64,000 nucleotides of DNA. It comes from a bacterium HR10. Its GTDB lineage: Bacteria > Acidobacteriota > Blastocatellia > HR10. This document shows positions 5,156 through 57,162 of this stretch, in pieces. The stretch covers positions 56,506 through 120,505 of the forward strand of contig BEHM01000001.1 of assembly GCA_002923315.1 (NCBI GenBank), read 5' to 3'. The first letter of the stretch is position 1. Each line of letters opens with the position of its first letter. Under the pieces are notes generated by a model. The model was not told where the DNA came from and searched no databases. It saw only the letters and a list, made by a program, of their open reading frames with translations. The translations under genes were made by a program, and so were the position numbers.

Positions 5156-6174
5156 GGGAGTTCCCGAATCAGCGCGACGTCGAAGAGCTGAGCGATGCTC
5201 TCGACCTCGCGAATGACGTTCACTCGGCGGTGGCGTTCGATGAGCTGTTCGAGCGCGGCGCGTCCGGCCGGCGTGTCGAGCGCGCGGAGATTCTCCCCTC
5301 GGTCGAGGAATCGAATCTCGGCCAGCATCGCCTTCGCCTCTTCGATCGAGACGCGCGAGCGTTCGGCGAAGAAGCGCGCCGTCTCCTCCGGATGCGTGCG
5401 GCCGTACTCCACAGCGCGGAAATAGGCGCGAAGCAACCGTCGGCATTCCTCGCGGCGTTCTCGGAGCAATGACTCCTGGATGGAGAGCACGTCGGCGATC
5501 TCCCCCGGAAGCTCGCGGCTCGAGAAGAGAATGTTCGCGCCCGTGCGACGAACCGTTAGCGTCAACCAGGGCTCAAAGGTCAGCCACGCCTCGATCTCGC
5601 GCCGCAGGAAGGCTTGTTGGCCATCCTGGGTGGAGAGGCTCACCACAGTGACCTCTTCCTCCCTCAAGCCCGTGCGTTCGCGCAGGCGCGCCCACAGATA
5701 GCTCCCGACGCCCCAGAGGCTGACGCCCACCCGCTTCCCTCGCAACTGGTGAATTGTCCGGATCTCAGGCTGGGCGATGAGACCCTCGGCGCCCTCGGAG
5801 TAGGCGAGCACGGCGACGCCCTTAGCGGTCTTCACTCTCTGCGCCAGTTGCAGGAAGCCGCTCAGGCTGCTGGCTAAGGCGTCGAGCCGATGGGCCTCAT
5901 AGGCCTGGACGGCTGCCGGAAACGCGCTGAATTCTCGCAGCTCCACCGCTACCCCTTCTTCTCGAAAGAACCCCTTGTGCTCCGCGAGGTTGAGGAACCC
6001 GTGTCCGGGGAAGGGACTATATCCGATGCGGATCGGCCCCGGAGATGGTCTCCCACAACTCCCACTGAACAGGGCGAGCGCGAGCGCACCGGTTATCACC
6101 ACGCGCGGAAGGCTCTGCTTGAAAGATGAGCGCCAGCGAGCGACCCTCACTCCCTTCCCGTTTCCGCCGAGCAC
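5152..6174 (-). CDS. NMT1/THI5-like (SsuA/TauA-type) periplasmic substrate-binding lipoprotein
   Basis: It has a signal peptide with a lipobox (LFSGSC), and the fold-level similarity is to the aliphatic sulfonate/nitrate-type ABC substrate-binding proteins. The start codon is uncertain: the longest ORF begins at a GTG. Confidence 0.6.
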   Translation of the reverse strand: MLGGNGKGVRVARWRSSFKQSLPRVVITGALALALFSGSCGRPSPGPIRIGYSPFPGHGFLNLAEHKGFFREEGVAVELREFSAFPAAVQAYEAHRLDALASSLSGFLQLAQRVKTAKGVAVLAYSEGAEGLIAQPEIRTIHQLRGKRVGVSLWGVGSYLWARLRERTGLREEEVTVVSLSTQDGQQAFLRREIEAWLTFEPWLTLTVRRTGANILFSSRELPGEIADVLSIQESLLRERREECRRLLRAYFRAVEYGRTHPEETARFFAERSRVSIEEAKAMLAEIRFLDRGENLRALDTPAGRAALEQLIERHRRVNVIREVESIAQLFDVALIRELP

Positions 6175-6388
6175 TGAGTCCCCATCCGCGCAAGGTCATA
6201 ACTTCGCCCTCCTTCGTGAGGGCATGACACAGCCTCCGATATTTTTGGAGGCGCGGGCGATTCGGGCAATACGGCGTTCGCCGGATTTTCACGGGACAAA
6301 TGCCGGAGCCCGAGAGGGAAGGCTCGCGCTCGTTTCGGCATCAGTTGTGCGATCACCTCAGGGCCTGATCCGCCAGCAGGGCCGGTCC

Positions 6389-7984
6389 TCACCTCTTCCC
6401 CGGTCCGTAGAGGATGCGTCCCGGGCGGGCTCCCGTGTGCTCCCCATCTTGAATGACGAGGACTCCGTTGACGAGCACATGGCGAATCCCTTCGGCATAT
6501 TGATGGGGGTTTTCGAACGTCGCGCGATCTCTCACTCGTTCGGGATCGAAGATGACCAGATCGGCGGCCATTCCCGGTCGGATCATCCCGCGATCCCAGA
6601 AGCCGAAGACCTGCGCCGGGAGACTCGTCATCTTCCGAACGGCCTCCTCCCAGGAGAGGAGGGCGCTCTCGCGCACATACCGACTGAAGACGCGGGCGTT
6701 GTTCCCATAGCCTCGGGGATGCGGCACACCCTGTCCCGGTTCCAGAACGCCCGCATCGGAGGCGATCATGGTGAAGGGTTGCTGCAGGATGTAGGTGATG
6801 TCGCGTTCGTGCATCTTGTGATAGACCATCTGCACGCGCCCTTCGCTGGCGAGGAACATCTCGATGATTTGTTCGGCTTGCTCCTCGACGCTCGCTCTCC
6901 GTCGGACGAGTCGCGTGATCTCGGCGATATTTTTGCCGTTGAAGCTCGGGTCCGGGCGATACTGAGCGACGTAGGCGTAGGAATAGTCTTTGAATCCCTG
7001 CTCGCGGATGCTGCGGATCATCTCCCGCTTGATGCGGGCGCGCAGATTCGGATCGCGGAGCCGTTCGACGGCCTTCGCGCGACCGCCATCATGCACCCAG
7101 CTTGGCAGGAGCGTCTCCAGGCCTGTGCTGGAGGCCGGGTAGACGTACTGGTCCACGGTCACGGGAAGGCCGCGAGCACGGGCCTCTTGGACCAATTGGA
7201 CGGTGCGACGACTCTCTCCCCAGAGCTTCTTGCTCGATACCTTGAAATGAGAGATCTGCACGGGCACGCCCGCGCGCTCGCCGATAGTGATCGCTTCGCG
7301 AATCGCGTCCATGACGCCGTTGCCCTCATTGCGAATGTGGCTGGCGTAGATGCCTCCATATTGGGCGACGACGCGCGCCAGCTCGATGATCTCCTCGGTC
7401 TTCGCGTACGTCCCCGGGATGTAGATGAGTCCGGTGGAGAGGCCGACGGCGCCCTCCTGCATCGCCTGCTCGACCAGATGCTTCATCCGCTCCAGCTCTT
7501 CGGGCGTTGGCTGACGCGCCTCTTCCCCCATCACGGCGCGGCGAACCGTGTTATGACCGACGAGCGTCGCCAGGTTGATCGAGAGCCCCTGATCCTCCAA
7601 TCGGCGCAACGCCTCTCCGATCGGGAGCCAGGAGCCTCCGCAATTGCCCGTCACGACGGTGGTCACGCCCATGCGCAGGAAGTTCTCCGCCGTCGGTCGG
7701 CGCAAGATCCCCCCCTCCACGTGCGTGTGCACATCAATGAACCCAGGCGCGACGATGAGCCCTCGCGCGTCCAGCACGCGAGCGGCCTCCTCCGATGGGA
7801 TCCGTCCGATCGCGGCGATTCGTCCATCCCGAATCCCGATGTCCGCGATGAACCAGGGATTTCCCGTCCCATCCACGATCCGTCCATTTGTGATCACCAG
7901 GTCGTAAGCCGGGGCGGTCGCCCACGCGATTGGCCAGATGAGGATCGCACTCAGAAGCAGAAGTGCCCATTTTCGGATTCGCAT
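6389..7984 (-). CDS. N-acyl-D-amino-acid deacylase (D-aminoacylase) family amidohydrolase, secreted
   Basis: It has an N-terminal signal peptide. The sequence YDLVITNGRIVDGTG ... GFIDVHTHVEG ... matches the metal-dependent amidohydrolase HxH motif and the D-aminoacylase architecture. Confidence 0.8.
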   Translation of the reverse strand: MRIRKWALLLLSAILIWPIAWATAPAYDLVITNGRIVDGTGNPWFIADIGIRDGRIAAIGRIPSEEAARVLDARGLIVAPGFIDVHTHVEGGILRRPTAENFLRMGVTTVVTGNCGGSWLPIGEALRRLEDQGLSINLATLVGHNTVRRAVMGEEARQPTPEELERMKHLVEQAMQEGAVGLSTGLIYIPGTYAKTEEIIELARVVAQYGGIYASHIRNEGNGVMDAIREAITIGERAGVPVQISHFKVSSKKLWGESRRTVQLVQEARARGLPVTVDQYVYPASSTGLETLLPSWVHDGGRAKAVERLRDPNLRARIKREMIRSIREQGFKDYSYAYVAQYRPDPSFNGKNIAEITRLVRRRASVEEQAEQIIEMFLASEGRVQMVYHKMHERDITYILQQPFTMIASDAGVLEPGQGVPHPRGYGNNARVFSRYVRESALLSWEEAVRKMTSLPAQVFGFWDRGMIRPGMAADLVIFDPERVRDRATFENPHQYAEGIRHVLVNGVLVIQDGEHTGARPGRILYGPGKR

Positions 7985-8141
7985 CGCTCACCTCCTCGGT
8001 TCGGAATTGTGGCTCACGGGGAGAAAATATATCCGCCTGCCCTGGTCCTCGTCACGTCCAGCAACGGGGGGTGGCGAAGCCTCGCTCTTGGGGAGCGGGG
8101 GAGAGGGTACCTCGCTTCGCGGGAAAGCTGAGGGCGATCTC

Positions 8142-8577: not shown

Positions 8578-9093
8578 TCACTCCGGACATTGGGCTTCCG
8601 TGAAACGGACCCACGAGAGGATGTGCTCCACAGTGGGCAACTCGCTCACTTCCGTGATCACGCGGGCGAAATAGATTTCACCATATCGGTCAGCGATGTA
8701 GAGCGCTCCGCTTGTCGCGACTCCATAGGCGCGATGCGCGCGTCCACCTTCGTCCACGAGGATGGGGAAGGGAAGGGGCAGGGTGCGGGGTGCTCGCGCG
8801 ATCGTTTCCATCGCTGTGCGCGCGTTGGGGGCGATCACCAGGACCTCCGCTTCCTCCTGACGAATCTCCGCATAGCGATCGGCCAGTGCCCGGAGGAGTT
8901 CGATGAGCGCGGCATCATGGTGCTCTCCAAGGAAGAAGAGGACGAGCGCCCGCTGCCCGCGATAATCCGAAATCCTCACCTGCTGTCCCGTCACCGTCAC
9001 CACCGTGACATCCGGCAGCAGCTCGCCCGGATGAGGAGGCGACATCGCGTCCCTCTCGACTCGCTCCATAGCGTCCTTAGAACAGTATGGCAA
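8578..9093 (-). CDS. redoxin/peroxiredoxin-fold protein lacking the catalytic cysteine
   Basis: The layout is AhpC/TSA-like (LPDVTVV..G..V.ISDYRGQRALVLFF ... PFPILVDEGG..YGV). At the position of the peroxidatic FxxxxTxVCxxE motif it reads LGEHHDAALIE, with no Cys. The start is ambiguous between 9093, 9069 and 9045. Confidence 0.5.
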   Translation of the reverse strand: MPYCSKDAMERVERDAMSPPHPGELLPDVTVVTVTGQQVRISDYRGQRALVLFFLGEHHDAALIELLRALADRYAEIRQEEAEVLVIAPNARTAMETIARAPRTLPLPFPILVDEGGRAHRAYGVATSGALYIADRYGEIYFARVITEVSELPTVEHILSWVRFTEAQCPE

Positions 9094-9259
9094 CTTTCGC
9101 GGTGAGGTTCAATGAGGTCCGCGACTCCGAAGCGATCTCTCAGGACGGCGCGATCCCCCTGTGGAAGAGGCGCGGCGCTCGGCCACACGCGACGGGGATC
9201 GCTAAAGGACCTGATTTCCCGCTTGTTCTTCAGGGGGGCGCTCCGTACCATTCTCCTCT

Positions 9260-10810
9260 ATGCGGTGGCCGCGATCGAGTGGCATTCTCCTGCATATCAC
9301 CTCGCTCCCGAGCCGAGGTGGGATTGGTGATCTCGGCCCGGAAGCGTATCGGTTCGTGGACTTCCTGGTCGAGACCGGTCAGCGCATCTGGGCGATCCTT
9401 CCCTTGGGCCCGACGGGATACGGCGATTCCCCCTATCAATGCTTCTCCGCTTTCGCCGGCAATCCCTTATTGATCAGTTTGGAGATGCTCGTCGAGGAGG
9501 GGCTCCTCTCACCGGAGGAGACAGAGGGCGTGGACTTCCCCGAGGGAACGGTGGAGTACGAGCGCGTGATCCCGTTCAAGATGGCGCGCTTGCGACAGGC
9601 CTTCGAACGGTTTCTGACGCGGGCGTCGGCGGAAGAGCAAGAGGCGTTCGAAATGTTTTGTCGGGAGAACGCGTGGTGGCTCGAGGACTATGCCCTCTTC
9701 ATGGCCGTGAAGGCGGCGCATGGTGGAGCCGTGTGGACGCAATGGGATCCGCCGATCGCTCATCGGGACCCGCAGGCCGTGGACCAGTGGCGGCGGACGT
9801 TGGCCCATGAGATCACTATGCGGAAGTATTGGGAGTTCCAGTTCTTTCGCCAATGGGCGGCGCTGCGCGCTTACTGTCGGCGACGCGGTATCTGGATCAT
9901 GGGCGATCTCCCGATCTACGTCGCTCACGATAGTGCCGACGTCTGGGCGCATCGCGATCTCTTCCATCTGGATGAGGACGGGAACCCCACGGTCGTCGCC
10001 GGAGTCCCGCCGGATTATTTCAGCGAGACCGGGCAGTTGTGGGGGAACCCGATCTATCGGTGGGACGTGATGGCTCGCACCGGATACGCGTGGTGGATTG
10101 ATCGGGTGCGATGGGCGCTGCAGCTTGTGGACATCATTCGGCTCGACCATTTCCGCGGATTCCAGGCGTATTGGGAGGTGCCGGCGACGGAGCCGACGGC
10201 CATTCGCGGTCGGTGGGTACAGGGACCGGGCGAGGCTTTCTTCGAAGCCTTGGGACGCGCGTTGGGCGAGTTGCCCATCGTGGCGGAGAACCTCGGTGTG
10301 ATCACGCCTGACGTCGAAGCCCTGCGCAAGCGCTTCGGATTCCCTGGAATGGCCGTCCTGCAGTTCGCGTTTGGCGGCGATCCGCGCACCTCTTCGTTTC
10401 TCCCGCACAATCATGAGCGTGATCTCGTGGTGTACACGGGCACGCATGATAACAATACGATCCTCGGGTGGTGGAGCGGCGAGGAGAGCACGCTCGCGCC
10501 GGAGCAGGCCGAGCGCGAGCGAGAGCTGGCGCGAAAATATCTCGACCTCGATGGTCGGCCCGTGCATTGGGCCTTCATCCGCGCCGCGCTCGGATCGGTG
10601 GCCGATCTGGCGATCATCCCTCTTCAGGATGTGCTGGGGCTGGGCAGCGAGGCGAGGATGAATCGCCCGGCGCGGCCGACGGGGAACTGGCGCTGGCGAT
10701 TTCGTCGCGAGATGTTGACGCCGGAGATCCGCGAACGATTGCGGGAGCTGACGTGGCTCTATGGCCGATTCCCCGATTGTTCGCCGGCGGGGGGCTTGGT
10801 ACAATGCTGA
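9260..10810 (+). CDS. malQ: 4-alpha-glucanotransferase (amylomaltase, GH77)
   Basis: Full-length GH77 similarity: GILLHITSLPS.GGIGDLG at the N-terminus, and a DLPIYVAHDSADVW / catalytic Asp-Glu context. Confidence 0.85.
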   Translation: MRWPRSSGILLHITSLPSRGGIGDLGPEAYRFVDFLVETGQRIWAILPLGPTGYGDSPYQCFSAFAGNPLLISLEMLVEEGLLSPEETEGVDFPEGTVEYERVIPFKMARLRQAFERFLTRASAEEQEAFEMFCRENAWWLEDYALFMAVKAAHGGAVWTQWDPPIAHRDPQAVDQWRRTLAHEITMRKYWEFQFFRQWAALRAYCRRRGIWIMGDLPIYVAHDSADVWAHRDLFHLDEDGNPTVVAGVPPDYFSETGQLWGNPIYRWDVMARTGYAWWIDRVRWALQLVDIIRLDHFRGFQAYWEVPATEPTAIRGRWVQGPGEAFFEALGRALGELPIVAENLGVITPDVEALRKRFGFPGMAVLQFAFGGDPRTSSFLPHNHERDLVVYTGTHDNNTILGWWSGEESTLAPEQAERERELARKYLDLDGRPVHWAFIRAALGSVADLAIIPLQDVLGLGSEARMNRPARPTGNWRWRFRREMLTPEIRERLRELTWLYGRFPDCSPAGGLVQC

Positions 10811-10814
10811 GGTG

Positions 10815-11813
10815 ATGATGGAGGACGAGAAGCTGATCGAGTGGGCGAAGAAGAGGTTGCCGGAGCTTTTACGCACGGACGAGGAGTTCCGCGCCCTTCT
10901 CCTCGGGACGCTCGTTCACTATCTCCCCACGCGTGAGGAGTTCACCGCTATTCTGGAACGGCTGGAACGCATCGAGCGCGAGTTGGAGGAGGTTCGCAAG
11001 GAACAGGTGGCTCTGCGTCAGGACTTCCAGGCCATGCAGCGGACGCTCATCGAGCAGGGACAGGCTATTTTGGCCATGCAGCAGGCGATCACCGAGCAGG
11101 GGCGGGCCATACATGAATTGCAGCAGACGGTGGCTGAGCAGGGGCAGGCCATACGGGAGTTACAACAGACAGTGGCCGAGCAGGGACGAGCCATACAAGG
11201 GCTGCAGCAGGCGGTAATGGAGTTGCAGCAGACGGTGGCTGAGCAGGGGCGGGCTATACAGGGACTGCAGCAGACGGTGGCTGAGCAAGGGCGAGCTATA
11301 CAGGAGTTGCAGCAGGCGGTTATTGAGCTGGGGCAAGCGGTTCGTGTTCTGTTCGAGCGAGTGGAGCGATTGGAAGTCGCGCATGCGGAATTAGCAGGAG
11401 AGGTACACGGATTGCGCCAAGAGATGCAGGGATTGCGCGAGGACTTCACGCGCTTGGAGCGGCGCGTGGATGTGGGATTCGCGCGGTTTGGAATCCTCTC
11501 GGAAGAGGTCCTTCGCCGTTCGCTTCAAGTGGCCATCGAGGCGTGGTTGAAGGCCGGGCGCGTGCAGACCATGGAATTGGCCGGACGCCAGGTGGACGTC
11601 GTGATTCGCGATGCCGAGCACGTCATTCTGGAGGTGACGGCGCGGGCGCATCTGCAGGACATTGACAAGTTGAAGATGGCCGCGCGAGACTACGAACGCC
11701 GATTTGGCGTGAGACCGCGGTTGGCCATCGCCTGCGCCTACATCACGCCTGTGGTCGTCGCGCGGTTGATCGAAGAGGGGATCGAACTGATCTCGGCGGA
11801 GGTTCCGGAATAA
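10815..11813 (+). CDS. coiled-coil tandem-repeat protein with a C-terminal DUF3782-like (putative PD-(D/E)XK-fold) domain
   Basis: The start is ATGATG, preceded by GAGGTG and lying 5 nt after the malQ stop. The central region is about 7 heptad-based 14-aa repeats (LQQTVAEQGRAIQE). The C-terminal roughly 110 aa (VDVVIRDAEHVILEVTAR...) resembles DUF3782. Confidence 0.6.
   Translation: MMEDEKLIEWAKKRLPELLRTDEEFRALLLGTLVHYLPTREEFTAILERLERIERELEEVRKEQVALRQDFQAMQRTLIEQGQAILAMQQAITEQGRAIHELQQTVAEQGQAIRELQQTVAEQGRAIQGLQQAVMELQQTVAEQGRAIQGLQQTVAEQGRAIQELQQAVIELGQAVRVLFERVERLEVAHAELAGEVHGLRQEMQGLREDFTRLERRVDVGFARFGILSEEVLRRSLQVAIEAWLKAGRVQTMELAGRQVDVVIRDAEHVILEVTARAHLQDIDKLKMAARDYERRFGVRPRLAIACAYITPVVVARLIEEGIELISAEVPE
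11034..11327 (+). repeat. 42-bp in-frame tandem repeat array (6 full units plus two 21-bp half units) inside the coiled-coil gene
   Basis: Units begin at 11034, 11076, 11118, 11160, (half unit at 11202), 11223, 11265 and (half unit at 11307). The consensus is TTG CAG CAG ACG GTG GCT GAG CAG GGG CGG GCC ATA CAG GAG. Each unit carries a rare ATA codon. Confidence 0.8.
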
Positions 11814-11842
11814 GCGTCCTCGCCTTCGTCAGTGGAGCTCGG

Positions 11843-14461
11843 CTATTCCCCCTTGGCATCCATCCAGTTGCGCCCCAGGCCGATCTCGACCACGAGGGGG
11901 ACGTTCAAACGATGCACATTCTCCATCTCCAGCTTGACGAGCGAGGGGACGATCTCCCGCTCCTCCTCTGGGACCTCCAGCAGCAACTCGTCGTGCACCT
12001 GCAGCAAGAGGCGGCTCTTGAGGTTTTGCCGGCGCAGGGCATGATGGACGCGGATCATGGCGAGCTTCACCAGATCGGCCGCCGTCCCCTGAATGGGCGC
12101 ATTGATCGCCTCGCGCTCGGCGCGGGCGCGCAGGCTCGGATTTTTGTTGGCGATGTCCGGGATCGGTCGGATGCGCCCGAAGAGCGTGCGCACGTATCCG
12201 GTGCGCCGCGCCTGCTTGGGCGTCTCGTCCATGAACCGACGCACGCCGCGATAGGTGCGATAGTAGTTCTCGATCACGCGGTGGGCTTCTCGACGCGAGA
12301 GGCCCGTGCGTTGCGCCAGACCGAAGGCGCCGATGCTATAGGCGATACCGAAGTTGACGATCTTGGCCAAGCGTCGCAGCTCTTGCTCTTGTTCGGGCGT
12401 CTGCGCGCCGAAGATTGTTCGGGCGACATGCGCGTGGATGTCGAGACCGCGCCGGAAGGCTTCGGTCATCTCCGGATCGCCGGTGATATGGGCCAGGATG
12501 CGCAGCTCGATCTGCGAATAATCGGCCGAGAGCAAGAGCCATCCTGGTTCGGCGACGAACGCGCGGCGAATCCGGCGGCCCAAGGGGGTGCGCACGGGAA
12601 TGTTTTGCAGGTTGGGGGAGGCCGAGGAGAGTCGCCCCGTCGCCGTCCCCGTCTGATTGAACGTCGTATGCACACGTCCGGTCGTCGGATTCACGAGTCG
12701 AGGCAGGGCATCAATGTAGGTGCTCTTCAGTTTCACCAATTCGCGATATTCGAGGATGAGGCGGGGCAGCTCGTGCTCTTCGGCCAGCTCCTCGAGCACA
12801 TCGGCGCTGGTCGAGATGCGCCCGGTCTTCTTCGTCCGCCGCGTGACGACTAGGCCGTGCGCCTCCAGGACTTCTCCCACTTGCTGCGGGGAGTTGATGT
12901 TGAATTCGCGCCCCGCCACGTGATGAATACGTCGCGTGAGCGCTTCGATCTCCCGCTCCAGCTCTTCCGAGGCTTCTCGGAGCGCGTCCACGTCTACCCG
13001 CACGCCGATCCGCTCCATCTCGGCGAGGATGCCGATGAGCGGGAGCTCGATCTCCCGGTAGACGCGCTCCAGCTCCAGCTCGGCCAGTCGCTTCGCGAGC
13101 ACACCGTTGAGGCGGAGGATCACGTCCGCCTCCCGCGCGCTCGCCCTCCAGGAATCGGGAGCGTCATCCCACTCGATCCGCAGATGTTCGCGGGCGAGCG
13201 CGCGGAGGTCGTACTTGCCGCGATTCGGATTGAGGAGCCACGCAGCGATCATGACGTCCTCGAGCGTCCCTTCCGGGACGATCCCCCGCTCGGCGAAGAC
13301 CTTCACCGCCGATTTCGCATCATGCGTGCATTTGACGATCAATCCGTTCTCGAGGATCTCTCGCACCATCTCCCACGCCGCTGGCCACGTCGTCAGGTCC
13401 ACGTAGGCGGCCGCGCGAGGTTCGATCGCCATGGCGATGCCGCGCGCATCTCCATTCGCCCAAGAGAGCGCGAAGGCGAAGCGATCCGCCGCCCAGATGC
13501 GGTCCATCCATTTCCGGAGCGCGCGTTCGTCGGAGAGCTGGAGGTAATCCCCGGCCGCCTCTCTCGCCACGACCTCTGTCACCCGCTCGGCCGCGAGCTT
13601 CTCCACGTCCACGAGGTCCTTGAGCAGGGAGGTGAATTCCAGCTCGGTGAACAACTCGTACGTGCGGCGCGGGTCGGGCCCTCGGTACCGGAGTCGGTCC
13701 AGCTCGATGTCCAGGGGGAGGTCGGTTCGGATCGTCACCAGCTCGCGCGAGGTGAGGATGAGATCGCGATGGTCGCGCAGCGATTCCCGATACGATTTCT
13801 TCTCGACCTTCTCCCAATTGGCGAGCACTTGTTCCAGCGAGCCGAACTGACGGATGAGCTGCACGGCTCCCTTCTCCCCGATCCCCGGGGCTCCAGGAAT
13901 GTTATCCGTTGAGTCCCCCCAGAGCGCGAGGAGGTCCACGACCTGATCCGGTCTGACGCCCAAGCGCTCTTGGACGCCTTTCTCGTCGAGATAGACGTAG
14001 GTCTGGCGATCAGCTCTGAGGATGCGAATGTTCTCGCTCACGAGTTGGCAGAGGTCTTTATCGTTGGAGACAATGACGACCTCCATGCCCTGCTCGGCAG
14101 CCCGTCGGGCGAGCGTCCCGATGACGTCGTCGGCCTCGTAGCCAGAGATGGCGAGGACGGGAACGCCCAGCGCCTCGCACACGCGGTGGATGTAGGGGAT
14201 TTGCAGTGCGAGATCATCGGGCATCTCCGTGCGGTTGGCCTTGTACTCGGGGAAGACCTCGTGCCGGAACGTCGGCTCCCCCGTGTCGAAGACGACGGCG
14301 AGATACTCCGGCTTCTCCTCAAGGATGAGCTTCCGGAGCATGGTTGTGAAACCGTAGATGGCGTTCGTGGGGAAGCCGCGCGAGGTCGCCAGGCCGCGAA
14401 TCGCATAGTACGCGCGGAAGATGTTGGACATGCCATCCACGAGGAATACGCGCTGCTTCAT
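11843..14461 (-). CDS. polA: DNA polymerase I
   Basis: It has the 5'-3' exonuclease N-terminus (VFLVDGMSNIFRAYYA), a proofreading-like middle domain, and the polymerase motifs (RRxAKxxNFGxxYG, QVHDELL). Confidence 0.9.
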   Translation of the reverse strand: MKQRVFLVDGMSNIFRAYYAIRGLATSRGFPTNAIYGFTTMLRKLILEEKPEYLAVVFDTGEPTFRHEVFPEYKANRTEMPDDLALQIPYIHRVCEALGVPVLAISGYEADDVIGTLARRAAEQGMEVVIVSNDKDLCQLVSENIRILRADRQTYVYLDEKGVQERLGVRPDQVVDLLALWGDSTDNIPGAPGIGEKGAVQLIRQFGSLEQVLANWEKVEKKSYRESLRDHRDLILTSRELVTIRTDLPLDIELDRLRYRGPDPRRTYELFTELEFTSLLKDLVDVEKLAAERVTEVVAREAAGDYLQLSDERALRKWMDRIWAADRFAFALSWANGDARGIAMAIEPRAAAYVDLTTWPAAWEMVREILENGLIVKCTHDAKSAVKVFAERGIVPEGTLEDVMIAAWLLNPNRGKYDLRALAREHLRIEWDDAPDSWRASAREADVILRLNGVLAKRLAELELERVYREIELPLIGILAEMERIGVRVDVDALREASEELEREIEALTRRIHHVAGREFNINSPQQVGEVLEAHGLVVTRRTKKTGRISTSADVLEELAEEHELPRLILEYRELVKLKSTYIDALPRLVNPTTGRVHTTFNQTGTATGRLSSASPNLQNIPVRTPLGRRIRRAFVAEPGWLLLSADYSQIELRILAHITGDPEMTEAFRRGLDIHAHVARTIFGAQTPEQEQELRRLAKIVNFGIAYSIGAFGLAQRTGLSRREAHRVIENYYRTYRGVRRFMDETPKQARRTGYVRTLFGRIRPIPDIANKNPSLRARAEREAINAPIQGTAADLVKLAMIRVHHALRRQNLKSRLLLQVHDELLLEVPEEEREIVPSLVKLEMENVHRLNVPLVVEIGLGRNWMDAKGE

Positions 14462-14606: not shown

Positions 14607-15605
14607 ATGCGAGATCGTGGCATCGCGCGATACCTGGCGCTCGTCGTGGTGTTCGCTGTGGCGTCGGGGGATTTCGGAGGGTTCAGAACGGCGGCTCGGC
14701 CGTCTCCGCAACTCCGGGCCATCATCACCGGTCGGAGCCTCGCGTTCTCGCCCGATGGTCAGCTCATCGCCACGACTGGAGAGTATGGGTGGGTCTTGCT
14801 CTTCCGCGTCGCCGATGGAGGCCTCGTGCGGATCTTCGGAGGACATATTGGGCCGACCATGTTCGTCACCTTCTCTCCTTCCGGAACATTGCTGGCCTCC
14901 GGGAGCCTCGATGAGAATTTCCATCTCCATCGCGTCTCCGACGGCCAACTCGTCATGACGCAGGTCGGACATCAAATGGGCATTAATGCCATCGTGTTCA
15001 CGGCCGATGAGGCGCTGATGGCATCGGCCAGCACGGATCGTGATATTCGCATCTGGCGCGTGGCGGAGAATCCGGCGTTGCGGATTCTCCGTGGACATCG
15101 AAATCGCGTGGAAGCGCTCGTGCTGACGCCCGATGAGCGCGAGCTGATCTCCGCCGGGTTCGACGGCACGATCCGTTTCTGGCAATTTCCCGACGGGCGC
15201 GCGCTCGAGGTGCTCGCGGCTCACGATGAGCGTATCCTCGCCCTCGCGCTCTCCCCAGATGGGGAATGGCTGGCGTCGGCAGGAGCTGATCGCGCGATCA
15301 AGATCTGGAACCGGCGGGCGCGGACGCTCGCCATGGTGCTCGAAGGGCATGAGAAGGCCGTGAATGCGTTGGCCTTCTCGCCCGACGGAGCGCTCTTGGC
15401 GTCGGCGAGCGAGGATCGAACGGTTCGGCTCTGGCGCCTCTCCGATGGCGCGCTCGTTCAGACGATTCCCGCTCATGCGGGGGGCGTCTTCGATGTCGCG
15501 TTCTCCCCGGATGGGGCGCTGCTGGCATCCAGTGGATCGGATCGCGCGATCCGCCTCTGGGCTGTGAGCGATGGGAGCCTTTGGCGGACGATCACATCAC
15601 CATAG
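14607..15605 (+). CDS. WD40-repeat protein with an N-terminal signal/anchor
   Basis: Seven WD repeats (GH...SPDG..LAS.S.D..I.LW). Confidence 0.8.
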   Translation: MRDRGIARYLALVVVFAVASGDFGGFRTAARPSPQLRAIITGRSLAFSPDGQLIATTGEYGWVLLFRVADGGLVRIFGGHIGPTMFVTFSPSGTLLASGSLDENFHLHRVSDGQLVMTQVGHQMGINAIVFTADEALMASASTDRDIRIWRVAENPALRILRGHRNRVEALVLTPDERELISAGFDGTIRFWQFPDGRALEVLAAHDERILALALSPDGEWLASAGADRAIKIWNRRARTLAMVLEGHEKAVNALAFSPDGALLASASEDRTVRLWRLSDGALVQTIPAHAGGVFDVAFSPDGALLASSGSDRAIRLWAVSDGSLWRTITSP

Positions 15606-15616
15606 ATGCGCGGGAC

Positions 15617-17227
15617 TCATCTCCTCCCCTGGTCCGGCGTCGCGCTCATTAAGGAGGGGAGGATGACGATCTCGACGCGTTGGTTCCGGCGCCGCGCTTG
15701 AGGGGTATTCCCCCGCTCCAAGGGGGCTTCGGCTCCCCGACCCACGGGCTTCAAGCGTTCGCTCGGCACGCCCTTGGACATGAGGTAGGCGGCGACGGCC
15801 GCGGCGTTCGCCTCGGAGAGGGCTTTGAGGCGGTCCGCCGGAGCCGATCCGCTCACATGCCCTTCGATCACGTACGTCCCGAGCGGGAAAGTCGCCAGAA
15901 TCGTCGCGATGTAGTCGAGCTTCGGGAGGACTTCACGTCGCAGTTGCGGCGTGCCCGAGGCGAGCTGTCGCTGCGGCATGAAGAGTTCCGCGTTCGGCAG
16001 CACGACGATGAAGCGATCCTCCTCGTCGCGGGTCTCGGCGACACGCGCCAAGGCGAGCTTCGCGCGATGCTCGTTGATGGAGATGCTGCTCCGTCGCAGG
16101 AGGCGCAGCTCCTCGGTCAGGGCTCTTGCGCGCGTTTGTTCCTCGGTGAGCTGTCGGGCGAGCCGTTCCAGCTCCTCCCAATATCGCCGTTCTGACTCCG
16201 CCTGTTGGGCCAGGCGTCGCTCCGCTTGTGCGAGCGCAGCGGTGGTGGCGTCCAAGCGGTTCCGAAGATCACTCAGCTCGCGCTCCCGCTCCTGCAGGCG
16301 CTCGTGCAAGTGCTCGCGCTCCGAGGTCAGGCGCTTCAGGTCCTCGCGCAGCTCGCGCACCTGATCCTCCAGATCGGCGAGCGCCATCTCTCGCTTCCGC
16401 TGTTCGGCCGCCTCCCGCCGTTCGCGGGCGAGCCGGCGCGCGAGCTCCGACATGAGGATCGCCCGTCGGGCCAGGATGGCCGCGCGCTCGTCAAATCCCC
16501 GCTCGAAGGCGCGTTCGGCGTCCTCCAGCAGCGCTTCAGCCCGCTTCATCTCCGAATCGGCATATTCGTTCACGCGAAAGAACCGAGCCAGGTCCAGCGC
16601 TCGGCGCGCTTCCAGCAGTTCCACGGGCATCTCCCGATCCCGCTCGGTGCTCACCCGCTCCTCGCGCCAGGGCACGCTCTCCATCCCGATATCGCCGCGG
16701 AAGTGCACTTCGACGGGTTCCGTCTCCAACCCCTCCTTCTCCTCGGGCGGTAAGCTCGCCAGCACGACCTCGCGACTCGGGGCCTCGACCAGAAAATGCG
16801 GTTCGGCCGTCATCACCACGCAGAACGTGCGATGGCGCGTCGCCGTCTCGATCGTCCCTCCCCAAGAGCGCGCGAAGATGCGCAGGATGCTCGTCTTTCG
16901 TGGACGAAATTCCCCGATGTTCTCCACCAGACCTTCCGGGGTGACGGCCCAGAAGACGTAGGTCGTGTACTGCTTGTGGCTCGGTGGATCGAGATCCTTC
17001 ACCGTGATCGTGAGCCGTGCGATCCCATCTTTGTACTGGACCGTCGCCGTGCCCGTTGTGCGGCTGTAGCGGGTCGTCCCGCGCAGCTTCAGCTCGATTT
17101 TTCGATCTTGGGGGAACGTGGCGGCTGTCGCCCGGAAGACGAAGTCGCTGCGCTCCTGAGCGAGAGCGGCGCCGTGCAGGAGGAGTCCCAAGACGCCGGC
17201 GCTCATCGCAGATCGTCGTGACCTCAT
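15617..17227 (-). CDS. OmpA/MotB-domain protein with a central coiled coil
   Basis: It has a signal peptide (LGLLLHGAALA), a long charged coiled coil (ERRE/AEQRKRE...), and a C-terminal OmpA-like peptidoglycan-binding domain (NQRVEIVI). A 4-bp ATGA overlap with the upstream VWA gene indicates coupling. Confidence 0.75.
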   Translation of the reverse strand: MRSRRSAMSAGVLGLLLHGAALAQERSDFVFRATAATFPQDRKIELKLRGTTRYSRTTGTATVQYKDGIARLTITVKDLDPPSHKQYTTYVFWAVTPEGLVENIGEFRPRKTSILRIFARSWGGTIETATRHRTFCVVMTAEPHFLVEAPSREVVLASLPPEEKEGLETEPVEVHFRGDIGMESVPWREERVSTERDREMPVELLEARRALDLARFFRVNEYADSEMKRAEALLEDAERAFERGFDERAAILARRAILMSELARRLARERREAAEQRKREMALADLEDQVRELREDLKRLTSEREHLHERLQERERELSDLRNRLDATTAALAQAERRLAQQAESERRYWEELERLARQLTEEQTRARALTEELRLLRRSSISINEHRAKLALARVAETRDEEDRFIVVLPNAELFMPQRQLASGTPQLRREVLPKLDYIATILATFPLGTYVIEGHVSGSAPADRLKALSEANAAAVAAYLMSKGVPSERLKPVGRGAEAPLERGNTPQARRRNQRVEIVILPSLMSATPDQGRR

Positions 17228-55992: not shown

Positions 55993-57162
55993 TCACGCGG
56001 CGGAATCCCAGAGGTCGAGGGATTTCAACCCCGATCCCGTGTTGAACAGGACGATGCGCTCTTCGGGGTGAACCTCCCCGCGCGCGAGGAGCTTCTTGAG
56101 GGCGGGAAGGCAAGCGGCGCCTTCGGGGCAGGCGAACACCCCCTCCAGGCGAGCCAGCTCGCGCATGGCCTCCACGATCTCGTGATCCTCGACGGCGATG
56201 GCTCCCCCGCGACTGCGCCGCAGGATGTCGAGGATGAGGAAATCGCCGAGCGCCCGGGGGACCCGCAGTCCAGCGGCGATCGTGTGGGCGTCGCGAACCT
56301 CCTCGGCTTCGGCTTTCCCCTCCCGGAAGGCGCGCACAATCGGCGCGCATCCGCTCGCCTGAACGGCGAAGAAACGCGGTCGTTCCGCTCCGATCCATCC
56401 GAGGGCTTCCATCTCCTCGAACGCCTTCCACATGCCGATCAATCCCGTCCCCCCTCCCGTGGGGTAGAGGATCACATCGGGGAGCTGCCCGTTCAGTTGC
56501 TCCACCAGCTCATATCCCATCGTCTTCTTGCCTTCAACGCGGTAGGGTTCCTTCAACGTCGAGACATCGAAGTACCCCTGCGCGGTCTGCTCGGCGGCGA
56601 GTCGTCGCGCGCACTCCGTGATGAGGCCGTCCACCAAGACGACACGCGCGCCGTAGAGTTCCGCCTCCCGACGATTGGCTTCGGGAGCATCGCGCGGCAT
56701 GAAGACGAAGGCTTCCAAGCCGGCGCGCGCGGCGTACGCAGCGAGCGCGCCCGCGGCATTCCCCGCGCTCGGAACGGCCAAGCGTCGAAGGCCGAGCTGT
56801 CGCGCCATGGAGACGGCCACGGCCATGCCCCGCGCTTTGAACGTGCCCGTCGGATTCGCCGATTCGTCCTTGATGTAGAGGGTGCGAACGCCCACGCGCT
56901 CCGCCAGGCGGCGACACGCCAGCAGTGGCGTGAATCCTTCGCCGAGCGAGACGATCGCCGCTGCATCCTCCACGGGGAGGACCTCCCGATACCGCCAGAG
57001 CGTCGGCTCCCGATGCGCGAGCGCCGCGCGCGTGAGCGTGCGCGCCGCTCGTTCCAGATCATAGCGCACCAGCAGCGGCTTACCGCACGCGCAGAGCTGA
57101 TAGACGCGCCCCGGTGGATAGGAGCGGTGGCATTTGGAGCAGACGAGCGACGTCACGTGCAT
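55993..57162 (-). CDS. thrC: threonine synthase with an N-terminal zinc-ribbon
   Basis: The PLP-lysine context is KDESANPTGTFKARG. It has a CxxC...CxC N-terminus (CSKCH...CACG). The start may be 57192 or 57162. Confidence 0.85.
   Translation of the reverse strand: MHVTSLVCSKCHRSYPPGRVYQLCACGKPLLVRYDLERAARTLTRAALAHREPTLWRYREVLPVEDAAAIVSLGEGFTPLLACRRLAERVGVRTLYIKDESANPTGTFKARGMAVAVSMARQLGLRRLAVPSAGNAAGALAAYAARAGLEAFVFMPRDAPEANRREAELYGARVVLVDGLITECARRLAAEQTAQGYFDVSTLKEPYRVEGKKTMGYELVEQLNGQLPDVILYPTGGGTGLIGMWKAFEEMEALGWIGAERPRFFAVQASGCAPIVRAFREGKAEAEEVRDAHTIAAGLRVPRALGDFLILDILRRSRGGAIAVEDHEIVEAMRELARLEGVFACPEGAACLPALKKLLARGEVHPEERIVLFNTGSGLKSLDLWDSAA

Follow-up and report, generated by a model that had tools for sequence, protein, structure and literature searches.

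The 64,000-nucleotide (nt) stretch of DNA analyzed here (the window; positions 56,506 to 120,505 of contig BEHM01000001.1 of bacterium HR10) carries, at 10815 to 11813 on the forward strand, a gene for a protein in which a long coiled-coil stalk connects a small helical head to a C-terminal domain with a PD-(D/E)XK nuclease fold. The open reading frame (ORF) comprises 332 codons when counted from the ATG at 10815, or 331 codons from the ATG at 10818, and ends with the stop codon at 11811 to 11813. The N-termini of orthologues (MMEDEKLIEW, MREEKELLEW, and MTQEEQLIEL) placed the start at one of these two ATGs, the second of which is the start of the GenBank protein. As the original prediction had stated, the gene is wedged between malQ (9260 to 10810, forward strand) and polA (11843 to 14461, reverse strand). 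The former encodes a GH77 4-alpha-glucanotransferase (Pfam PF02446, E value of 1.4e-187), and the latter, a convergent gene given here for context only, encodes DNA polymerase I (PF00476, PF02739, and PF01367). The start codon was likewise correctly placed just past the malQ stop, since the TGA at 10808 to 10810 is separated from the first ATG by 4 nt. Regarding a ribosome binding site of its own, inspection of the sequence did reveal a Shine-Dalgarno-like GAGGTGA at 10809 to 10815 (+), but this motif overlaps the stop codon of malQ and lies directly against the first ATG, and its spacing suits the second ATG (10818) better than the first. The gap between malQ and the gene is 4 to 11 nt at the orthologous loci L008, L007, and L009, and a promoter scan of 8900 to 12100 yielded no promoter-like site and nothing beyond the shuffled expectation. 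Because the short gap is kept in relatives and no promoter-like site lies between the two genes, malQ and the stalked-nuclease gene are probably co-transcribed.

The C-terminal domain spans residues 224 to 327 (11484 to 11795, +). Residues 260 to 312 matched PF07788 (PDDEXK_10, formerly DUF1626) at 30.6 bits, above its cut-off of 21.2, the C-terminal 117 amino acids (aa) alone scored 33.0 bits against the same model, and orthologues carry precomputed PF07788 matches. An AlphaFold2 (AF2) model of the domain, built from 43 sequences, had a predicted local distance difference test (pLDDT) score of 84 and a predicted template modeling score of 0.74. It showed an a-bbb-a-b-a-b topology, in which helices occupy model positions 18 to 32, 68 to 85, and 100 to 109, and strands occupy positions 38 to 43, 46 to 53, 56 to 65, 90 to 97, and 112 to 115. 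When the model was compared with the PDB by Foldseek, the best matches were to NucS/EndoMS (2vld and 5gke; E value of 5e-6 and template modeling score of 0.64), and these were followed by VC1899, Can2, MspJI, XisH, and Hjc, all of which are PD-(D/E)XK nucleases. A profile search of the PDB by sequence found no related chain and returned spurious weak matches only (cpSRP43 and Slr0355). These data confirmed the PD-(D/E)XK-like fold that had been anticipated for the C terminus, as well as the membership of the protein in the coiled-coil DUF3782/DUF1626 family. The DUF3782 label, by contrast, had been attached to the wrong part of the protein: it was given to the C-terminal 110 aa, a domain that belongs to PF07788, whereas the DUF3782 model (PF12644) covers residues 195 to 251 at the stalk end and scored 20.8 bits, under its cut-off of 24.4. 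Since precomputed PF12644 matches exist in four orthologues (P0002, P0004, P0012, and P0014), the window stalk is regarded as related to DUF3782 despite the subthreshold score.

A C-domain-only protein search returned just 4 proteins, and HMMER was instead used to compare the C-domain exhaustively with 1.84 billion representatives. This comparison yielded 69 hits at an E value of ≤1e-3, four of which (P0016, P0054, P0058, and P0074) were discarded as unrelated repeat proteins. Six residues, R224, G226, E230, D261, Y293, and P301, were invariant in 43 family sequences with identities down to about 30%. E230 (11502 to 11504, +), located in the first helix of the domain, is the candidate motif I Glu, and D261 (11595 to 11597, +), in the second strand, is the candidate motif II Asp. 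Motif III, (D/E)-x-K, reads E273-V-T275 (11631 to 11639, +), with Thr in place of Lys; at these positions Glu occurs in 42, Thr in 35, and Lys in 4 of the 43 sequences. A Lys-to-Thr change in motif III has been reported for DUF1626, together with the proposal that the Lys has moved to the following helix (PMC1913061). In the window protein, K285 (11667 to 11669, +), which the alignment places in the helix after strand 3 within D-I-x-K-L, is a candidate for this migrated lysine. The protein is therefore a new member of an already catalogued, functionally uncharacterized family (DUF1626/PDDEXK_10 plus DUF3782, COG5493), and no experimental study of DUF1626, DUF3782, or COG5493 was found in the literature.

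The full-length protein was modeled with AF2 as a monomer only, using a 13-sequence family alignment (mean pLDDT of 80). The model consists of two helices (residues 2 to 21 and 23 to 36), a break at residues 37 to 39, a single helix from residue 40 to 224 with pLDDT values above 90 at residues 51 to 140, and a compact C-domain. The first two helices form the head (residues 1 to 36; 10815 to 10922, +), which had no match in Pfam, PHROG, or PADLOC. The head is conserved in the subfamily, and a hidden Markov model of it also found P0038, P0072, P0071, P0046, and P0073 of the wider family. Because part of the wider family is detected by the head profile, the head-stalk-nuclease plan is old. A head-only protein search gave no matches and missed the known orthologues too, a result that reflects a word-index limit and does not count as evidence.

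The junction between head and stalk, Y-L-P-T-R-E-E-F (residues 36 to 43; 10920 to 10943, +), includes the break in the AF2 model and resembles a beta-layer motif. The beta-layer consensus, [aliphatic]-A-T-K-[polar]-[DE], was described for the stalks of this family by Hartmann et al. in 2016 (PMC4786415). L37-P38-T39-R40-E41-E42 strictly matched the consensus at 4 of the 6 positions, a resemblance in sequence only. The corresponding junction of the L012 orthologue is L-A-T-R-E-D, and related V-T-R-E-D-F or V-K-K-E-D-F motifs occur in 17 of 40 stalked members of the wider family. After the junction, F43 opens an unbroken heptad register: the stalk comprises residues 43 to 224 (10941 to 11486, +), was parsed into 26 uninterrupted heptads, and would be about 27 nm long if fully helical. 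I or V predominates at core position a, L alternates with Q at position d, and G or A is frequent at positions e and g. Neither a Walker A motif nor a hydrophobic segment was found in the protein, and from the latter a cytoplasmic location is predicted.

Much of the stalk is encoded by a tandem array of 15 heptads (11025 to 11339, +) composed of 42-base-pair (bp) double-heptad units and one unpaired 21-bp heptad. In frame, two heptad types, I-x-E-L-Q-Q-T and V-A-E-Q-G-R-A, alternate over 15 consecutive heptads. Tandem Repeats Finder, the program that the original prediction had recommended, reported 42-bp arrays at 11077 to 11215 (3.3 copies, 75% matches) and at 11224 to 11338 (2.7 copies, 83% matches), along with periods of 63 and 105 bp. 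The self-match at a lag of 42 was 0.69 across 11025 to 11339 versus 0.28 ± 0.026 in shuffles, and the pairwise DNA identity of the units was 74 to 83%. On these figures the 42-bp array encoding 14-residue double heptads is real yet not near-perfect, as it had been called. The unpaired heptad and a degenerate last unit fit the two 21-bp half units that had been described. In an independent assembly (L017, run DRR101364) the array is identical to that of the window. Two kinds of prediction on the array were discarded: a terminator call within the gene (11324 to 11344) is a piece of the repeat, and antisense ORFs (11018 to 11449 and 11160 to 11384, both on the reverse strand) are reverse-complement products of it, rejected because purifying selection acts on the forward frame (see below).

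The number of repeats had been expected to vary, and this was indeed observed. Counted between two anchors (from the F of T-R-E-E-F to R-F-G-I), there are 26, 26, 21, and 19 heptads in the four closest proteins, all of which are syntenic orthologues, and 15, 13, and 17 heptads in other subfamily members. Of 12 subfamily members, 9 have anchors that are separated by an integral number of heptads. A DNA alignment with the near-identical strain L016 revealed that exactly one 21-bp heptad is missing there, in frame, while the rest is near identical; its equivalent in the window is 11198 to 11218 (+), a placement ambiguous by a few bases owing to the repeat. Accordingly, two proteins of a single 90%-identity cluster, P0086 (324 aa, on a 489-kilobase [kb] contig) and P0083 (331 aa), differ by one heptad. 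In a position-by-position comparison with L008, identity is 88% in the array versus 94 to 98% in the flanks, and the order of the units appears shifted, a pattern that fits unit gain and loss or gene conversion. These results showed that the stalk array arose as heptad units of 21 and 42 bp were duplicated in frame and that gain and loss are ongoing. Beyond this locus, 67 family sequences have the R-[WFL]-G anchor. In 36 of these, the stalk contains its own near-exact tandem repeats, whose periods (7, 14, 21, 28, 11, 25, and 29) are all compatible with a coiled coil. With so many representatives carrying their own repeats, repeat-driven resizing of the stalk is a trait of the family and is not peculiar to the window gene.

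The two ends of the protein are strongly constrained. Comparison with orthologues gave dN/dS ratios (nonsynonymous to synonymous substitution rates) of 0.05 to 0.14 for the head and 0.06 to 0.14 for the C-terminal 115 codons. The malQ-gene-polA order is kept at loci whose proteins are 96% (L008), 71% (L007), and 70% (L009 to L011) identical to the window protein, and in L016 and L017 as well; more distant orthologues lie in unrelated housekeeping neighborhoods with no recurring neighbor. The window holds one copy of the gene. These data showed that the gene is real, that its head and nuclease domain are under strong purifying selection, and that it resides in the core chromosome.

On balance, we think it fairly probable that the protein is an oligomeric, stalk-mounted DNA endonuclease, in which a small head and a C-terminal PD-(D/E)XK domain are joined by a long parallel coiled coil. 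Oligomerization through the stalk would give a dimer or trimer whose two or three catalytic domains would be clustered at one end and able to cut DNA, for which the dimeric action of NucS and Hjc offers a parallel. The head, at the far end, would bind a partner or a site, and the length of the stalk would be only loosely constrained, provided that the coiled-coil register is kept. Catalysis is proposed because the metal-binding acidic residues E230, D261, and E273 are conserved.

Several observations weigh against this proposal. The canonical motif III Lys is Thr in the window protein. The oligomeric state is ambiguous, as the combination of I or V in position a and L in position d favors dimers, while the junction motif resembles beta-layers, which have so far been found in trimers only. 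No conserved neighbor gene indicates a pathway, the distant orthologues being in unrelated housekeeping contexts. Since the copy in one lineage is frameshifted, the gene is dispensable there. Codon typicality outside the array is 0.607, below that of every one of 34 reference ORFs of the window (0.647 to 0.775; 15,893 codons). Finally, no family member has been characterized biochemically and none has a solved structure.

A different role for the same nuclease would be that of a stand-alone anti-phage or anti-plasmid effector or a toxin, with the gain and loss of repeats reflecting either an arms race or a spacer that can be retuned. The family is patchily distributed with inferred horizontal transfers (PMC3424549), archaeal DUF1626 genes have been reported in operons with MNT and HEPN genes (PMC3710099), and such a role would also accommodate the recurrence of repeat turnover across the family, the pseudogenized copy in one lineage, and the mildly atypical codon usage. 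Set against these points, the lack of any PADLOC or PHROG match for the head and nuclease domain, the conserved housekeeping position with no defense neighbors at every locus examined, the strongly purifying selection, and the single copy in the 64-kb window make a defense function unlikely, if worth keeping in mind. We consider it improbable that the protein is a noncatalytic scaffold whose PD-(D/E)XK-like domain only binds nucleic acid or a partner at the end of a coiled-coil tether. The complete or near-complete conservation of all three acidic motif residues across 43 sequences, with identities as low as about 30%, is hard to explain without catalysis, E-x-K is kept in four family members, and a relocated Lys has been proposed (PMC1913061); these facts outweigh the Thr in motif III, the long stalk typical of a tether architecture, and the variable stalk length, all of which a scaffold would explain.

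More speculatively, the stalk of the endonuclease could serve as an evolvable molecular ruler. The head would then dock on a fixed structure, cellular or foreign, the number of heptads would set the distance at which DNA is cut, and in-frame gain or loss of heptads would retune that distance. We regard this extension as doubtful; if true, it would represent a new kind of distance-programmed nuclease, plausibly for defense or for processing a specific DNA structure.

The codon usage of the gene had been taken to suggest a foreign or recently expanded origin, on the ground that every repeat unit uses ATA for Ile. ATA is indeed very rare in the window, accounting for 9 of 846 Ile codons (1.1%) in the reference ORFs, but only five units of the array use it (codons starting at 11109, 11151, 11193, 11256, and 11298; 11109 to 11300, +), each opening an I-x-x-L-Q-Q-x heptad; in the units at 11049, 11067, 11088, and 11322, Ile is encoded by ATC or ATT. 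Five ATA among the 22 Ile codons of the gene corresponds to a binomial P value of 3e-6 if codons are independent, and in the comparison with other genes of the window, of the kind that had been recommended, the codon typicality of the whole gene (0.578) is under that of all 34 reference ORFs. A recently acquired gene, in which rare ATA codons betray a donor with other codon usage, would account for both values. However, the five ATA codons are not independent, as all of them occupy one position of the repeat units, and that position is ATC in the syntenic orthologues L007 and L009 and ATA in the closest relative, L008. One ATA thus arose in the lineage of the window and L008 and was copied with its unit, in keeping with a recent expansion. 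Furthermore, GC content at third codon positions is 0.75, at the bottom of the range of the neighboring genes (0.75 to 0.85), and synteny is kept down to 70% protein identity; a recent foreign origin is therefore highly improbable. A role of ATA as a selected translational pause is not claimed either, because the retention of all five codons is indistinguishable from chance given the divergence of the units. The window also contains many spurious antisense or overlapping long ORFs (9509 to 10876 and 11018 to 11449 on the reverse strand, 5975 to 8131 on the forward strand, and others), which have 5 to 12 ATA codons each and a third-position GC content of about 0.65 to 0.70, as is usual in GC-rich DNA. 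For this reason, a naive ORF list of the window overstates the use of ATA.

Starting at its second Met, the sequence is the same as that of GBC80952.1, which is named "Chromosome partition protein Smc [bacterium HR10]" and comes from an unclassified metagenome-assembled genome (MAG), and the JGI name of the 96%-identical orthologue is "chromosome segregation ATPase"; the "poxvirus fusion protein" type of misannotation that had been mentioned was not seen. An SMC-type chromosome partition protein, as this public annotation has it, can be dismissed, as the weak matches to SMC, Rad50, and MukB models (42.4 bits for TIGR02168, whose cut-off is 567 bits, and 20 to 26 bits for JetC/LmuB) are confined to the coiled coil, and a 332-aa protein with no Walker A, no ATPase head, no hinge, and a PD-(D/E)XK domain at its C terminus is set against a 1181-position model. 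Matches to SMC, Rad50, MukB, JetC, LmuB, tape-measure, and viral-spike proteins were all rejected as compositional, involving the coiled coil only and scoring far under the cut-offs. Both public names are wrong and rest on coiled-coil similarity only.

Some public copies of the gene are broken or shortened. In L002 (6001 to 6475 of JBEPZV010000046.1, a GTDB representative MAG), about 524 nt that span the whole stalk are missing (P0013, 137 aa), and the orthologue is frameshifted, its head being in frame 0 and its nuclease domain in frame 1; such a copy could be a true pseudogene or the result of an assembly that collapsed over the repeats. L014 and L015 (6001 to 6900, P0012) represent a more distant lineage, in which several frameshifts break the nuclease domain. 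Because the same breaks occur in two independent assemblies (ENA and JGI), the P0012 copy is probably a pseudogene. In the P0001 and P0013 clusters, the public calls P0085, P0087, P0088, and P0089 (82 to 129 aa) end at the array or begin just past it, and short-read assemblers seem to break contigs there. In L012 (5650 to 6444, P0015), the gene caller picked an internal Met, giving a product of 147 aa; the full head-stalk-nuclease ORF extends upstream in frame, and its stalk has a repeat of its own, S-E-L-V-E-L-R-R-D-F-N-A-R.

The other genes of the window are ordinary chromosomal ones, including leuS, a glmS-like gene, genes with LptC and LptD domains, and genes for histidine kinases, and scans of the 64-kb window for tRNAs and Rfam families gave no matches. 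Beyond polA lie a gene for a 332-aa WD40 beta-propeller repeat protein (14607 to 15605, +), which adjoins it, and a gene for a 536-aa OmpA-family protein (15617 to 17227, −) with a long charged E/R-rich stretch in the middle of its translation. Downstream of polA in L007, L008, and L009 there are an OmpA-domain gene of similar size and then a VWA-domain gene. At the loci of the P0005 lineage (L003 to L005, 6717 to 7847), the orthologue overlaps by 4 nt a downstream gene that encodes 376 aa without a Pfam match. This gene may be an operon partner; no equivalent follows the orthologue at the other loci examined.

Overall, the original prediction proved largely correct in substance, its errors being the near-perfect array, ATA in every unit, the Pfam label of the C-terminal domain, and the foreign origin. 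Taken together, these results correct a public misannotation, that of GBC80952.1 as "Smc" and of its JGI orthologue as a chromosome segregation ATPase. They also showed that a cluster of rare codons can come from the amplification of one repeat unit, without horizontal transfer. At one locus, the stalk of a DUF1626/DUF3782 protein was seen to change in length by whole heptads, both between species and between near-identical strains, and independent expansion of stalk repeats recurs across the family. The array also seems to break or collapse metagenome assemblies, with truncated or frameshifted gene calls as the result, one of them probably that of a GTDB representative genome. The family, which is widespread in thermophiles, offers a concrete entry point for experiments in its conserved head and nuclease on a freely resizable stalk.

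Proteins with DUF1626/PDDEXK_10 and an N-terminal DUF3782 occur in Sulfolobus, Pyrobaculum, Chloroflexus, Roseiflexus, cyanobacteria, and others. The window protein resembles the DUF1626 family in passing the PF07788 threshold, in its predicted a-bbb-a-b-a-b topology, and in the Thr-for-Lys substitution in motif III. DUF1626 proteins are also known for an N-terminal coiled coil that attracts misannotation of the "tropomyosin/SMC" type (PMC1913061), and the window protein is alike in this respect. Relative to the rest of the family, it belongs to a small distinct subfamily, whose C-domains, at identities of 65% or higher, fall into about four 50%-identity clusters among the 1.84 billion representatives, and which has signatures of its own, R-F-G-I-L-S-E and the C-terminal I-S-A-E-V-P-E. 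Its stalk carries a Q-rich I-x-E-L-Q-Q-T-V-A-E-Q-G-R-A repeat in place of the A-E-A-Q-K-R-T-E type common in the family, and differs from DUF3782 family stalks in that its DUF3782 score is under the threshold.

The best structural match of the C-domain, at about 20% identity over 108 residues, is NucS/EndoMS, an endonuclease of archaea and actinobacteria that is specific for mismatches and flaps. NucS likewise belongs to the PD-(D/E)XK nucleases, and it dimerizes through a separate N-terminal module, where the window protein has a coiled-coil stalk and a head. Motif III contains Thr in the window protein versus Lys in NucS, and mismatch specificity is not inferable from the match. Membership in the NucS/EndoMS family (DUF91, PF01939) was rejected, since there was no PF01939 match at an E value of ≤1, and the C-domains are alike at the fold level only.

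With respect to the alpha/beta coiled coils of Tcar0761 and the crenarchaeal DUF3782 endonucleases, the window protein belongs to the family of those endonucleases. The F after L-P-T-R-E-E takes core position a, in agreement with the published register. According to the same study, bacterial members lack nonads (PMC4786415). In comparison with alpha/beta coiled coils, the window stalk is purely heptad, with at most one beta-layer-like motif, at its start; this junction, known from sequence alone, has Pro for Ala and Arg for Lys relative to the consensus. CoCoNuT and McrBC-type systems (PMC11090510) likewise combine extensive coiled coils with nuclease domains. The window system differs from CoCoNuT in being a single gene, with a nuclease domain that lacks a PADLOC match, and Type IV restriction of the CoCoNuT/McrBC kind was rejected, the neighbors being malQ and polA and genes for the McrB GTPase or McrC being absent from every related locus examined.

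In the HsdS subunit of type I restriction enzymes, in-frame coiled-coil spacer repeats vary in copy number, as between EcoR124I and EcoR124II (two versus three TAEL repeats). The window protein shares no homology with HsdS, has no HsdM or HsdR nearby, and carries a repeat of 7 or 14 residues that makes up far more of the protein. Nevertheless, the two are alike in that the number of repeats in a coiled-coil spacer changes the spacing between the modules of an enzyme that acts on DNA, which for the window protein would be the head and the nuclease domain.

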